Of a stretch of DNA of 64,000 nucleotides, positions 28,636 to 32,160 are shown one piece after another. A model generated the notes under the pieces. The model saw only the letters and a list, made by a program, of their open reading frames with translations, was not told the DNA's origin and ran no database searches. Position numbers and translations under genes: made by a program. The stretch's first letter is position 1. Each line of letters opens with the position of its first letter. The stretch comes from Candidatus Paceibacter sp. (GTDB lineage Bacteria; Patescibacteriota; Minisyncoccia; Phycocordibacterales; GCA-2747955): assembly GCA_014237915.1 (NCBI GenBank), contig JABACC010000006.1:9510-73509 (forward strand). Direction: 5' to 3'.

Positions 28636-31600
28636 GTTTCAATTTAAGAGCATATGGAGGATGCCTTGACTCTAAGAAGCGAAGAAGGACGTGGTCAGAC
28701 TGCGATAAGCTCGGGGTAGTTGTCTAACAGACTTAACCCGAGATTTCCGAATGAGGAAACTCTATAAAGCAAACCTTTATAACATTTTCTACATAAGTGA
28801 GAAAATGAGCGTACCCGGGGAAGTGAAACATCTCAGTACCCGGAGGAACAGAAACTAAATCAAGTATTTCGTAAGTAGCGGCGAGCGAAAGCGAAGAAGC
28901 CCAAACCACAGAAATTTTATTTTTGTGGGGTTGTAGGAATTAAACCTCTATTTAATTAGAGCAGAGTCAAAAATTATTTTGTTAAAGGAAGCATCTGGAA
29001 AGATGCGCCCCAGAGGGTGATAGCCCCGTACTTGAAAACAAAATAACTCTGTTGTTTATTCTCCTGAGTAACCCGAGACATCAATAGCTCGGGTGAATCT
29101 GGCAGGACTAACTGCCAAGGCTAAATATTCTTAGAGATCGATAGTGAACAAGTACCGTGAGGGAAAGGTGAAAAGTACCCCGAAAGGGGAGTGAAATAGT
29201 TCTGAAACCATATGTTTACAAGGAGTAGACGAGGTGCTTGCACCTCTACTGCGTGCCTATTGAAGAATGAGCGGGCGAGTCTGTCTATACGGTTTATAGC
29301 TTAATCTACTATGTAGAGAAGGCACAGCGAAAGCGAGTATTAATAGTGCAAAAATTATCGTATGGATAGGACCCGAAGCTGGGTGAGCTTACCATGGACA
29401 GGTTGAACACTTTCGAGAGATAGTGGGAGGACCGAACCGGTTGACTGGCAAAATCATCGGATGATCTGTGGTAAGGAGTGAAAAGCTAAACGAACTCAGT
29501 AATAGCTGGTTCTCTCCGAAATAGCTTTAGGGTTAGCGTCAAGCGTTCCTTCCGGGGGTAGAGCACTGGAAAAAAAGGATAGGGGGAAACCTCACCTTTT
29601 TTATCAAACTCCGAATACCGGATAGTTAATAGCTTGGCAGTTAGGCTCAGGGGGCGAAGCTCCTGCGGCCAAAAGGGAAACAGCCCAGACCTAAATCTAA
29701 GGTCCCTAAATTTAAACTAAGTGCACTTAAGGTGGTTTTATTTCTCAAACAGTCAGGAGGTTGGCTTAGAAGCAGCCATCCTTTAAAGATAGCGTAACAG
29801 CTCACTGATTTAGAGATTTAGCGCCGCAAATGATCGGGGCTCAAGTTTAATACCGAAGATTAGGATGTCATATTATTTTTATATTTTATGGCGTGGTAGG
29901 AGAGCGTTCCATATTGCACTGAAGCCAAAGGCGTAAGCCATGGTGGAGCATATGGAAGTGAGAATGCCCGCACGAGTAACCACAAGGAAGGTGAGAGCCC
30001 TTCCGGCCGGAAGACCAAGGTTTCCTTTTCAATGATTGTCAGAAAAGGGTTAGTCGGGCCTAAGCCGATAGCGAAAGCTGCAGGCGATGGACATACGTTT
30101 AATATTCCGTAACTTCCTTATTTTTCGATGGAGTGACGGGGGAAACAATTCATAGCATTTTATTGGATTAATGTTTTTATATTTAAGACTTGATACTTAG
30201 GAAAATCCGGGTATCATATAAAGTCGAAATATGAATAAATCATTTTTTACGAAAGATGAAATTATGAAGAAGAGCCCTCCAAGAAAAACTTCTAAGGTTA
30301 AACTTAAGGAATCCGTACCCCAAACCAACACAGGTGGTCGAGTCGAGAAGACTAAGGCTGGCGAGTGAGTATTCCCCAAGGAACTCGGCAAAAAAGCGAT
30401 CGTAACTTCGGGATAAGATCTGCCCGGGCTATACTTGTATAGTTTGGGCCGCAGCTAAAGAAGCCCTGCCGACTGTTTATCAAAAACACAGCTCCCTGCG
30501 AAGAGGTAACTCAATGTATAGGGGGTGACGCCTGACCAATGCCGGAAGGTTAAATATTGGCGGTATAATGATTTTTAATCGTTATGCTGACCGATATAAG
30601 CCCCGGTGAATGTCGGCCGTAACTATAACGGTCCTAAGGTAGCGAAATTCCTTGTCTGGTAAGTTCAGACGTGCACGAATGGCGTAACGAGTGGGGCACT
30701 GTCTCGGGGAATAGCTCGGTGAAAATGCAATACCGGTGAAGACGCCGGTTACCTGCACCAGGACGAAAAGACCCCAGGAGCTTTACTATAGCTTGGTATT
30801 GGGTATATGTAGCAACTGCGCAGCATAGGTGGGAGACTTTGATGAATAAATTTCGGTTTATTTTGAGTCGACAGTGAGATACCACCCTTTTGTCGCCTAT
30901 ATCCTAATCTGAAAGGTAAAAACTTTCGGAGACAGTATCTGGCGGGTAGTTTTAGTGGGGCGCTATCCTCCCAAAAAGTAACGGAGGAGTTTAAAGGTTA
31001 GTTAGGCGCGAATGGAAACCGTGCCGATAGTGTAATGGCATAAACTAGCTTAACTGCGAGGAGTACATTCCAAGCAGATGCGAAAGCAGAACATAGTGAT
31101 CCTGACCTCGGCATTAGATGCTGGGTTAGCTCAACGGATAAAAGTTACCCTGGGGATAACAGGCTGGTATCGCCTAAGCGTCCATAGCGACGGCGATGTT
31201 CGGCACCTCGATGTCGGCTCATCCTATCCTGGGGCTGAAGAAGGTCCCAAGGGTTTGGCTGTTCGCCAATTAAAAGGGTACGCGAGCTGGGTTTAGACCG
31301 TTTTGCAGAAAAATTTTTTAAAAAATTTTTCTGCAAATAATCTAAACCTCATTGATGTTATCGAAACCTTATTTCTTTTTAAAAAGTAATTTTTAAAAAC
31401 AGTCTTTTCGTCAAAATAATAGCCATATCACGGCGGTCTTAGCTTTTTTGCTAAGAAAAAATGTAACTAATATCGGAGAAATCCAATTTTTTTGGACAAT
31501 TCCGAGGGAAGGTTATGAATTTTTTTAATAAAATCCATAATTACCCGTAGAGACTAATCGTTACAGCAAAAATTTAATATTTCATATTTTTTATATGTTT

Positions 31601-31945
31601 TAATATATAATATTTTGTAAGTTATAGTCCTATACACTTGGTAACAAGTGATAAGGTATGCGTGAGACAGGTTGGTTATTATCCGGTGCAGGCGCCAATT
31701 CTTGAGAAGATCTGCCCCTAGTACGAGAGGACCGGGGTGGACTGACCTCTGGTGTACCAGCTGTTCTGCCAAGAGCACTGCTGGGTAGCTATGTCGGGAA
31801 TGGATAACTTCTGAAAGCATCTAAGAAGGAAGCCAACTTCAAGATTAGGAATTTTTTTAGCCCCTAAGAGATGATTAGGTTGATAGGCTTTAAGTGTAAG
31901 CACAGCAATGTGTTTAGCTGAGAAGTACTAATTCGCTAAATGAAA
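28636..31945 (+). rRNA. rrl: 23S ribosomal RNA (ends approximate), interrupted by an about 359-nt insertion at 31302..31660
   Basis: Conserved 23S blocks: ggatgccttg...gaaggacgtg...gcgataagc at the 5' end; ccgtaactataacggtcctaaggtagcgaaattccttgtc; gataacaggctg; ggcacctcgatgtcggctc; gggtttagaccg | insertion | cgtgagacaggttggt; tagtacgagaggaccgg. No 16S gene in the window. Confidence 0.9.
31302..31660 (+). mobile_element. ORF-less intervening sequence in the 23S: candidate small group I intron, inserted after the U equivalent to about E. coli U2593
   Basis: The exon reads gggtttagaccgT | ... G | cgtgagacag. Removing 31302..31660 restores the universal GGGTTTAGAACGTCGTGAGACAG block. The 5' exon ends in U and the insert ends in G, as group I splicing requires. 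The insert is AT-rich, with no ORF of 60 aa or more. Confidence 0.5.
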
Positions 31946-32054
31946 TTTTCATTAGGAAATTTTAAGGATATAATTTTGTATTTTATTTTACAGAAAGTTA
32001 ATTCCTGTTTTTGAAAAGACTATTTAATTTTTAAGGTTATTAAAAATATTTTAT

Positions 32055-32160
32055 TCTGGTGCTTTGTCGGAGGGGTAACACCTGTTTCCATTCCGAACAC
32101 AGAAGTTAAGACCTCTAGAGCCGATGGTACTGCCTTGCGGGAGAGTAGGCAGGCGCCGGA
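32055..32160 (+). rRNA. rrf: 5S ribosomal RNA
   Basis: ccattccgaacacagaagttaag...gccgatggtactg...gagagtaggcaggcgcc. The ends pair with each other. Confidence 0.85.

Follow-up and report, generated by a model that had tools for sequence, protein, structure and literature searches.

What is the 359-nt insert that splits the 23S rRNA gene of this Patescibacteria (Parcubacteria-like) genome at the equivalent of E. coli position 2593, and how would a ribosome be made from a gene so divided? The reading that we favour on sequence grounds, with a probability of about 0.88, is that the insert is an endonuclease-less, self-splicing group I intron at 23S L2593, belonging to a CPR-wide family and residing in an rRNA operon from which the 16S gene is unlinked.

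An interrupted 23S gene without a linked 16S

We analysed a window of 64 kb (the whole stretch of DNA under study; all coordinates below are on the + strand). A search with Rfam at gathering thresholds located the 23S rRNA gene at 28632..31952 (LSU_rRNA_bacteria, 2381.5 bits), a 5S rRNA gene at 32055..32161 (70.4 bits) and five tRNAs, and gave zero matches to SSU rRNA in the whole 64 kb. The 23S gene thus has 28.6 kb upstream and 31.8 kb downstream free of 16S, which bears out the absence of a 16S gene that the initial annotation had claimed for about 28 kb upstream; the 16S does not adjoin the 23S, i.e., the operon is unlinked. Such separation of the 16S from a 23S-5S pair is a common arrangement in Patescibacteria (10.1101/705046), and the present case fits the habit of CPR of unlinking their rRNA genes. 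No second 23S copy was seen in the 64-kb window. A promoter-like site, TTGACT-16-TATAAT at 28289..28316, lies ~320 nt upstream of the 23S gene, past terminator-like hairpins, and has 11/12 consensus matches; going by this consensus match alone, the 23S and 5S genes probably have here a promoter of their own. The host was assigned from a GlyRS gene 1.2 kb upstream of the 23S, which in a protein search shared 63-72% identity with proteins bearing the names Patescibacteria, Pacebacteria or Parcubacteria. On the contigs of four of its homologues (P0004, P0008, P0009 and P0013; 70-72% identity) a 23S gene beside glyS was absent.

Two alignments agreed with the annotated position of the insert, 31302..31660. 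MAFFT alignment with E. coli rrlH placed it directly after U2593, as the sole intron-sized insertion in the 23S gene, and alignment to the LSU model gave a single insert of ~361 nt within helix 93. By Rfam and alignment, the gene is thereby divided into exon 1 (28632..31301, E. coli positions about 1-2593) and exon 2 (31661..31952). The final exon base is T31301 and the final intron base G31660, in keeping with the group I boundary rules invoked at the outset (U before the 5' splice site, G at the 3' end). The exon block around the insertion had been cut at the right place, after the T, by the annotated coordinates, but misquoted as a string: it reads GGGTTTAGACCGT before the cut and CGTGAGACAG after it, with C, not A, at E. 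coli 2590. Both an unlinked operon and a 23S intron are usual in the host phylum, so the rating given in the initial annotation overstates how unusual the finding is.

A group I core and its splice-site helices

A match to the Rfam model Intron_gpI (RF00028) covers 31419..31651; in a search of 561 nt it scored 28.6 bits (E 2.3e-5). The Infernal search proposed beforehand recovered the core at a score short of the gathering value of 50 bits, and the copy went unreported in the gathering-threshold scan; several L2593 homologues exceed that value (L007, 64.6 bits; L020, 56.5; L031, 51.9). We attribute the low score to AT drift, the window copy being the most AT-rich of its family (25.3% GC). That family comprised 47 loci in species-representative genomes, nearly all of them CPR, with L2593 introns of 251-840 nt that have a common core. 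For covariation we used 44 relatives at L2593, again nearly all CPR, and the core was analysed over 26 homologous introns.

Strong covariation was found across these 26 introns in P3-P9, P9.0 and P10. RNAalifold independently predicted P10, P3, P4, P5, P6, P8 and P9, with 24/40 pairs compensated; once P7 and P9.0 were added, 95.8% of the cells were paired, versus 33-41% with slid partners, and double (compensatory) changes occurred in 26/48 pairs. None of 500 shuffles reached these pairing or compensation values. A leave-one-out nhmmer profile gave a single match in the window, at 31428..31670 (E 1e-25). Of the 66 columns that do not vary among the 26 family cores, the window copy has kept every one, those of J6/7, P7, J8/7, the guide and ωG included, and every core helix pairs in it. 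An undetectable P3-P7 core had been named as grounds for giving up the group I reading; covariation instead revealed that core and supports the reading.

The complete P3-P8 core, with its P3/P7 pseudoknot, could be traced in the window copy. P2 is a hairpin, CUUAGC-UUUUUU-GCUAAG (31438..31455), whose loop is not the GNRA-type tetraloop of most relatives. P3 pairs 31462..31467 with 31560..31565 and encloses P4 (31473..31477 with 31501..31505), P5 (31482..31496), P6 (31506..31546), J6/7 (GUAGA) and the P7 5' strand (GACUA, 31552..31556); P3 to P6 are placed by covariation. The AU-rich P8 (31566..31618) is followed, within 31619..31660, by J8/7 (AAGUUA), the P7 3' strand (UAGUC, 31625..31629; P7 is invariant in the family), P9.0 (31632..31634 with 31657..31659), which covaries and abuts ωG, the likewise covarying P9 with its GUAA loop (31635..31650), and the terminal ωG at 31660.

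The internal guide sequence, which had escaped the initial annotation, starts 126 nt into the intron, at 31428..31437, as UCACG followed by GCGGU; CACGGCGG is invariant across the family. Its second half (31433..31437) pairs with the exon strand ACCGU (31297..31301) to form P1, in which the splice-site U31301 makes a wobble with G31433 next to four Watson-Crick pairs; its first half (31428..31432) pairs with CGUGA at the start of the 3' exon (31661..31665) to form P10. The splice-site U·G is present in 38/38 family members, and three G-C pairs of P1 are also invariant. The four core pairs of P10, CACG:CGUG, occur in all sequences, and the outer fifth pair, U:A, is missing in 16/38. A compensatory change was found at exon -4 in the sister introns L025 and L009; since the exon bases of P1 and P10 are invariant in the clade that bears the element described below, the covariation of P1 comes from these two sequences only.

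The 5' hairpin and a candidate second exon-binding element

The insert begins, at intron base +1, with a perfect palindrome (31302..31337), as the initial annotation had noted, although its length is 36 nt and not 37. No other copies were found in the 64 kb, where near matches were low-complexity A/T runs. Every member of the family has a hairpin here, 21-150 nt long in the relatives and of differing sequence, with covariation at all four closing pairs; the palindrome is the version of this common hairpin that the window copy carries.

Next to it lies a segment that we call E1, AUAAUCUAAACCU at 31337..31349 (family consensus ACAGUCUGAAUCC). Its bases 31341..31349 pair with positions -13 to -5 of the 5' exon (GGGUUUAGA, 31289..31297), which correspond to E. 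coli G2581-A2589, reaching from the peptidyl-transferase loop into the start of H93; A31297 is common to this helix and P1. The E1-exon helix is present in the MFE fold of the window copy, and its pairing is maintained across the family: exon C-8 changes to U together with G to A in E1 (2/2 cases), exon G-6 changes to A together with C to U (5/5), no pairs are broken, and exon and E1 variants are perfectly associated. The exon positions paired by E1 are universally conserved nucleotides of the peptidyl-transferase loop.

We considered and rejected two other accounts of this pairing. The E1 helix is not the true P1, as the splice-site pair would then be A-U in most members and there would be no P10, and the homologous position in L025 and L009 marks GCGGU, just 5' of P2, as the guide. 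Nor is it an inverted repeat at the DNA level, because G·U is the majority state at exon -11 (32/38) and is also found in the closing pairs of the hairpin.

Between E1 and the guide, the rest of the expanded P1-loop domain (31350..31427, drawn from fold and motifs) contains a hairpin (31352..31364), a U5A5 hairpin with a GUAA loop (31376..31399) and the family motif UUUUCGUC (31405..31412). The domain measures 60-250 nt in the CPR clade. RNAalifold with 13 family members gave no consensus structure for the E1-to-guide region, the alignment being too gappy; motifs recognised by eye were UUUUCGU, a purine-rich block and AUCAAUCAA.

We tentatively propose, at somewhat less than even odds, that the L2593 introns of CPR evolved a second exon-binding site, in which E1, within the P1 loop, pairs with the exon from -5/-6 to -13 and makes up a pseudoknot together with the 5-bp P1. 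For the intron under the favoured reading, splicing would proceed as follows. During transcription the +1 hairpin would fold first; E1 (31341..31349) would then pair with exon -5 to -13, a pairing shown by covariation, and might so tether the 5' exon. The P3-P9 core, likewise shown by covariation, would fold next. GCGGU (31433..31437) and exon ACCGU, whose pairing potential is invariant, would make P1 with U31301·G31433 at the splice site, and P1 and the E1 helix would presumably together give an H-type pseudoknot along one continuous exon strand. By established group I chemistry, an external guanosine would attack the 5' splice site; UCACG would align the 3' exon through P10, P9.0 would position ωG31660 in the P7 pocket, and exon ligation would restore helix 93 as GACCGU-CGUGAGAC (junction also given as GACCGU-CGUGAGACAGG). 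Given its membership of the known CPR L2593 family, the intron is ordinary for its host except for the unusual extra element that would grip the upstream exon.

If the second-site reading is true, the stretch of 5' exon that is recognised lengthens from 5 nt to about 13 (or some 18 with P10). This could hold the large rRNA 5' exon past the first step, prevent the peptidyl-transferase loop from entering ribosome assembly before splicing, or make endonuclease-free copies specific enough to spread by reverse splicing. A functional E1 would be a natural lengthening of exon recognition by a group I ribozyme, with a bearing on the persistence and spread of endonuclease-less introns and on the design of trans-splicing ribozymes. 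For specialists, it is this second exon-binding element, conserved and covarying, that is of interest, along with a guide lying so far from the splice site. We found no group I intron described in the literature as having a natural two-part guide for its 5' exon, and the exon-binding element in the P1 loop may be undescribed so far; to our knowledge, the distant guide sequence and E1 of the CPR L2593 introns are undocumented.

The same helix could, with rather lower likelihood, belong to a mutually exclusive fold, a checkpoint or switch that masks the 5' splice site until the guide displaces E1. Pairing with exon -1, -2, -4 and -5 is also open to E1 bases 1, 2, 4 and 5 (R, Y, G and U), which vary without loss of pairing: A or G stands opposite U, and C or U opposite G. 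G never occurs at position 3; the resulting mismatch opposite C-3 is conserved and keeps the extension weaker than P1. The MFE fold of the window copy has the E1 helix, the 5' hairpin, P2-P6, P8 and P9, without the guide-formed P1 and without the pseudoknotted P7, in line with such a fold. In the window copy, however, A faces C at E1 position 3 and again at position 4, which leaves the extension toward the splice site very weak, and the stable part of the E1 helix (-5 to -13) overlaps P1 by one base, so both helices can coexist as a pseudoknot.

We consider it improbable that the insert is a group I intron too decayed to splice itself, and is retained, removed with the help of proteins, or excised by an RNase III-type activity to leave a fragmented 23S. 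Its sub-threshold Rfam score and its AT content, the highest of the family, would fit decay, and the UUUUUU loop of P2 in place of a GNRA-type one, together with the very AU-rich P8, may mean that folding is weakened or protein-dependent. The 16-bp perfect 5' hairpin could be a substrate for RNase III, and a group I intron of the Simkania 23S has been reported as unspliced (a title in the reference list of PMC11270868). Against this, all 66 family-invariant core columns are kept and all core helices pair. Helix 93, at the peptidyl-transferase centre, is cut in two by the insert, whose retention there is probably incompatible with ribosome function, and the 64-kb window holds no second 23S copy; moreover, the insert ends are not mutually complementary, unlike those of RNase III-processed intervening sequences.

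That the insert is no intron at all has very little to recommend it and is, on the covariation evidence, effectively refuted: bacterial 23S genes, those of CPR included, commonly carry intervening sequences (PMC11270868), but the classical ones lie at other sites (23IS2 and 23IS4 in PMC11270868) and lack a ribozyme core, whereas this insert is in helix 93, has non-complementary ends (UUUGCAG... and ...AAGGUAUG) and, by covariation and profile match, contains such a core, which equally disposes of an expansion segment; the palindrome resembles the terminal or foldback repeat of a nested, MITE-like mobile insertion, but has no second copy in 64 kb and sits where every member has a hairpin of varied sequence with covarying closing pairs. 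A group II intron was likewise rejected in favour of group I.

The L2593 family and its known counterparts

Comparison with the 23S genes of relatives, suggested in the initial annotation, was carried out and yielded intron-bearing, endonuclease-bearing and empty-site versions. An I-CreI-type LAGLIDADG gene is located in L6 in some relatives (carriers include L024 and L004/L014), and the family endonucleases are homologous to I-CreI, I-MsoI and I-CvuI (E about 4e-18). The window copy encodes no LAGLIDADG ORF: its longest ORF has at most 28 aa and tblastn with the family endonucleases found no remnants in the intron, so the claimed lack of an endonuclease ORF stands. Without a homing endonuclease this copy cannot home. 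Its GC content of 25%, close to the 28% of the host genome, suggests a long, vertically inherited residence after loss of the gene from L6. The L2593 site was empty in at least 120 metagenome contigs and in the closest 23S retrieved (L076, 83.8% identity), and the 23S genes of the intron-bearing representative genomes were only about 75% identical. A lineage-specific 23S pattern, GACAGGTTGGTTATTATCCGG, had 0 matches in metagenome contigs, and a close relative of this 23S was not found there.

Site 2593 corresponds to '23IS12' of the CPR 23S genes surveyed by Tsurumaki et al. (2024, J Bacteriol; PMC11270868), and its standing as a hotspot, asserted in the initial annotation, is documented for CPR in that paper and for cyanobacteria in PMC1995217. 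Insertions at 2593 that encode LAGLIDADG proteins are already on record in published surveys, as are 222 group I introns of CPR 23S genes that have no ORF. According to PMC11270868, insertions were classed as group I by Rfam cmscan at relaxed thresholds, versions at 2593 with a LAGLIDADG_1 gene coexist with shorter ORF-less ones, and the introns at this site have a scattered phylogenetic distribution with high similarity outside the ORF. Our ORF-less copy shares phylum and site with these introns and differs in nothing essential from what is described there. A description of the secondary structure of CPR 23S introns was not found in the searched text of that survey, and since the classification there used cmscan, we take the distant guide and E1 as undocumented in it. 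The known picture is thus mostly confirmed: group I introns, some with endonuclease genes and some lacking them, often split CPR 23S genes at sites in the peptidyl-transferase centre. AT-drifted introns drop below the Rfam gathering score and escape routine annotation, and family-specific profiles recover them easily.

The Chlamydomonas chloroplast intron Cr.LSU, which carries I-CreI, occupies this same L2593 site. Introns at L2593 are also known from Synechococcus and Thermosynechococcus (Haugen et al. 2007; PMC1995217). With the chloroplast and cyanobacterial introns the window's family shares the site and, in some members, endonucleases of the I-CreI family; the window copy, in contrast, has no endonuclease gene. 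In the cyanobacterial introns about 65 nt of P7.1/P7.2 extension lie between P7 and P3' (PMC1995217), a subgroup IA-type feature that the window's family lacks: the P7 5' strand runs nearly straight into P3', with 3 nt between GACUA (31552..31556) and 31560..31565. Neither the chloroplast nor the cyanobacterial introns are described as having a large P1-loop domain that includes E1.

Identical in site and in P3-P9 core sequence are L025, from a Patescibacteria MAG, and L009, from the DPANN archaeon GW2011_AR20, which have, for instance, GACUAAUAUCGGUGAAAUCC in common with the window copy. Unlike it, both bear a LAGLIDADG gene and lack E1; their P1 loop takes the canonical short form, 8-10 nt, and the guide directly follows the splice site. 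Their host exon reads AGAACGU, which the L025 guide GCGUUCU matches fully, while that of L009 pairs through only five bases, GCGUU. In group II introns, two intron segments, EBS1 and EBS2, pair with adjacent stretches of the 5' exon, IBS1 and IBS2, an arrangement that makes recognition longer and retains the exon once the first step is over. The likeness of such two-segment exon recognition to the putative joint action of the guide and E1 is one of analogy only, ribozyme class and chemistry being different, and implies no homology.

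The 23S-5S unit and its insertion

At the Rfam gathering thresholds the window carries a bacterial LSU rRNA gene (28632..31952, 2381.5 bits), a 5S rRNA gene (32055..32161) and five tRNAs, and no SSU rRNA was found across the 64 kb, in agreement with an initial annotation that had described a 23S-5S pair without a 16S; such unlinking of rRNA genes is reportedly frequent in Patescibacteria (bioRxiv 10.1101/705046). Upstream of the 23S gene and downstream of terminator-like hairpins lies a promoter-like site close to consensus (TTGACT-16-TATAAT, 28289..28316), an arrangement fitting a putative 23S-5S transcription unit of its own. 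Three GC-rich hairpins were seen at 28140..28250, in a spacer otherwise of 25-30% GC between an ORF (27672..28112) and the promoter-like site. One is GCGGGCCCCGCAAGGGCCCGCC; the other two are stems resembling terminators, at 28159..28184 and, with 18 bp and scored on the minus strand, at 28211..28249. The window belongs to an 87-kb metagenome scaffold (ENA ERZ23487945). Its GlyRS is 63-72% identical to proteins named Patescibacteria, Pacebacteria, Parcubacteria or Campbellbacteria by their sources, and its 23S gene is only ~75% identical to any named CPR locus, which points to a divergent, low-GC CPR lineage as the host. Gene order around glyS/dnaG/rpoD (25946..27397) is rearranged relative to the closest GlyRS relatives; in L050 the interval from glyS to dnaG, occupied by the 23S-5S unit in the window, contains a hisS-like gene and another for a signal peptidase.

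When the gene was globally aligned with E. coli rrlH, the insertion measured exactly 359 nt (31302..31660) and fell after E. coli 2593, just as initially annotated, and the LSU model alignment showed one large insert of ~361 nt in the helix-93 region. The only other notable length difference from rrlH was ~57 extra bases in domain I near E. coli 274-287 (window 28908..28977, following positions 274 and 287); this stretch is not long enough to be an intron and probably represents either an expansion or a small intervening sequence. The exon sequence around the insert reads GGGTTTAGACCGT|CGTGAGACAG; the string first given was one base off, E. coli 2590 being C in the window and not A, and the opposite strand of helix 93 (GGUUGGUC) appears to compensate for this C in these 23S genes. 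The exon ends with U and the intron with G, the group I borders already pointed out; no ORF longer than 28 aa was found inside the insert, which had been called ORF-less. The palindrome noted at its start is present and perfect, but measures 36 nt (31302..31337) instead of 37.

Group I core and same-site relatives

The results support the first interpretation of the insert as a group I intron, based on model alignment, a paired and covarying core, and high-scoring relatives. In a permissive Rfam scan of 31200..31760, the Intron_gpI model, proposed earlier as a check, aligned to 31419..31651 at 28.6 bits (E 2.3e-5 for that search), under the family gathering score of 50. The alignment contained the core motifs AAU-AUCGGAGAAAUCC (J3/4-P4-P5), GUAGAGACUAA (J6/7-P7) and UAUAGUCC (J8/7-P7). 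By reading the sequence we located a canonical internal guide sequence at 31428..31437: GCGGU forms P1 with the last five exon bases, ACCGU, with U31301·G31433 as the splice-site pair, and the adjacent UCACG is the exact complement of CGUGA, the first five bases of the 3' exon (P10).

In an alignment of 26 cores, from guide sequence to 3' exon, all 66 invariant columns were kept by the window. RNAalifold independently gave P10, P3, P4, P5, P6, P8 and P9, and 24 of the 40 pairs carried compensatory changes; once the pseudoknotted P7 and a 3-bp P9.0 abutting ωG were added, standard pairs occupied 95.8% of 1237 cells, compared with 33-41% when partners were slid by 1-3 columns, and 26 of 48 pairs showed double changes, values reached by none of 500 shuffles. 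A profile HMM built from 25 relatives, with the window left out, had a single, full-length match in the window (31428..31670, E 1e-25). Homologous introns in three of the other 23S loci scored above the gathering score (L007, 64.6 bits; L020, 56.5; L031, 51.9), so by Rfam standards this is an ordinary group I family; the shortfall of the window copy is due to its AT content, the highest in the family (25.3% GC versus 31-50% in relatives; host non-rRNA DNA, 28%). Judging from its sequence, the intron would be self-splicing. The main residual doubt concerns unaided splicing, this copy being AT-drifted and devoid of the L2 tetraloop.

A search for the pattern AGACTAA-N(45-75)-TATAGTC-N(15-45)-GCGTGAGACAG in bacterial and archaeal genomes, with each species represented once, yielded 47 loci. 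Patescibacteria account for nearly all of them (Paceibacteria/Parcubacteria lineages, Saccharibacteria and Moranbacteria), and a few come from DPANN or MAGs of doubtful binning. For 43 of the loci and the window (44 sequences) the intron could be delimited at both exon borders; the insertion site was identical throughout and the lengths were 251-840 nt. The empty site GGGTTTAGACCGT-CGTGAGACAGGTTGG was matched exactly in at least 120 metagenome contigs, and the nearest 23S that the searches recovered, L076 (83.8% identity over 1450 nt), has no intron; intron presence thus varies among related rRNA genes, as in the literature. The comparison with relatives suggested by the initial annotation returned occupied sites, empty sites and endonuclease-bearing members.

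Several of these loci deserve separate mention. The 840-nt introns of L004, whose MAG is labelled Bathyarchaeia, and L014 (Moranbacteria) are identical, and the bacterial-type 23S flanks of the two loci are nearly so; the 4.7-kb 'Bathyarchaeia' contig probably got into its MAG through a binning error, and the same may apply to L032, labelled Bdellovibrionales. L031, L043 and L016 carry a second 23S insertion ~55 nt downstream of the intron at 2593, directly after ...CUAGUA in the sarcin-ricin loop region, probably the 2657 site listed in PMC11270868. Additional Intron_gpI matches occur elsewhere in the 23S genes of L003, L015 and L020, and those of L149, L164 and L113 appear to be split around E. 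coli position 2500.

The P1-loop domain and a proposed second exon-binding element

In every main-clade member ~60-250 nt of intron precede the guide sequence (consensus UCACGGCGGUC), so that the P1 loop is a whole domain of fixed layout: (i) a hairpin of 21-150 nt starting at intron base +1, unrelated in sequence between members; (ii) a conserved 13-mer, E1 (consensus ACAGUCUGAAUCC; AUAAUCUAAACCU at 31337..31349 in the window); (iii) a variable stretch with recurring motifs; and (iv) the guide sequence, with P2 starting directly after. All four closing pairs of the +1 hairpin covary across the family, and its window version is the 36-nt palindrome.

E1 is complementary to the 5' exon at -5..-13. 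An alignment of 38 sequences, with fixed-length segments concatenated, gave seven solid pairs, and both naturally variable exon positions covaried perfectly with zero broken cases: C-8 to U is accompanied by G to A in E1 (window and L031), and G-6 to A by C to U (5/5). The ViennaRNA MFE fold of the window likewise pairs 31289..31297 with 31341..31349 around the palindrome hairpin. P1 is invariant within the E1-bearing main clade; as the stable part of the E1 helix (-5/-6..-13) and P1 (-1..-5) occupy adjacent parts of the exon strand, together they would form an H-type pseudoknot. These data leave room for a hand-over or switch, with E1 pairing extending to the splice site in exchange with P1: E1 positions 1-5 (R-Y-H-G-U) could carry it that far, with a conserved mismatch opposite C-3, although in the window two A·C mismatches make this extension very weak. 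At exon -11 most sequences (32/38) have a G·U wobble, which favours RNA pairing over a DNA-level inverted repeat. The pairing of E1, a conserved candidate for a second exon-binding element, is well supported.

The P2 loop is UUUUUU in the window versus GAAA or GUAA in most relatives. Within the P1-loop domain there is also a hairpin with a 10-bp U5A5/U5A5 stem and a GUAA (GNRA) tetraloop (31376..31399), which might, as pure speculation, take over the tetraloop contact lost from L2. The motif UUUUCGU(C/U)U recurs in the stretch separating E1 from the guide sequence (window 31403..31427, L018, L030, L036, L044 and others), with a purine-rich block (AGAGAGGAAUGAU) and AUCAAUCAA coming after it; by eye, a UUUUC-G-UUU / AAA-A-GAAAG helix with a central G·A can be drawn, and RNAalifold gave no consensus structure for this region.

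Endonucleases, sister introns and known systems

No endonuclease remnant was detectable in the window intron. Single-motif LAGLIDADG proteins matching Pfam LAGLIDADG_1 are encoded in L024 (148 aa, 704-nt intron) and L004/L014 (143 aa, 840 nt); that of L004 is homologous over its full length to I-CreI, I-MsoI and I-CvuI (E about 4e-18 to 2e-11), and its ORF sits in the P6 loop. P6 of the window is a short hairpin.

Two sister introns, L025 and L009, share the core of the main clade and have a canonical P1 loop of 8-10 nt and no E1, which shows the E1 domain to have been added within the CPR clade. Their host exon is AGAACGU and the guide has the matching change at -4, supporting the P1 assignment; the L025 guide GCGUUCU pairs all seven exon bases and GCGUU of L009 pairs five. 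L009 is a locus in the complete genome of the DPANN archaeon GW2011_AR20 (CP010426.1), whose group I intron at the 2593 site includes a LAGLIDADG ORF; its P3-P9 core is that of the CPR family, which shows that the intron lineage is shared across domains.

Cyanobacterial introns at the same site (Haugen et al. 2007, PMC1995217) have P7.1/P7.2, an extension missing from the window family. In their survey of CPR rRNA insertions, Tsurumaki et al. 2024 (PMC11270868) assigned 45% of 23S insertions to group I by cmscan, counted 222 ORF-less group I introns in CPR 23S genes, and found same-site ORF-bearing and ORF-less versions highly similar outside the ORF. They list 2593 among the 23S sites where LAGLIDADG_1 genes predominate (1917, 1931, 1952, 2593, 2604 and 2657), which bears out the hotspot claimed initially. 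The window intron thus adds one more case to a class already documented and is nothing unusual in a CPR genome. We found no description of a distant guide sequence or E1 pairing in the literature, in which 'P1 extension' is used for the helix lying above the splice site in the Tetrahymena ribozyme or in ribozymes engineered for trans-splicing; for reverse splicing, reviews give a requirement of no more than 4-6 complementary bases (PMC3984707). The sole potentially new point of this intron is the conserved, putative second exon-binding element.
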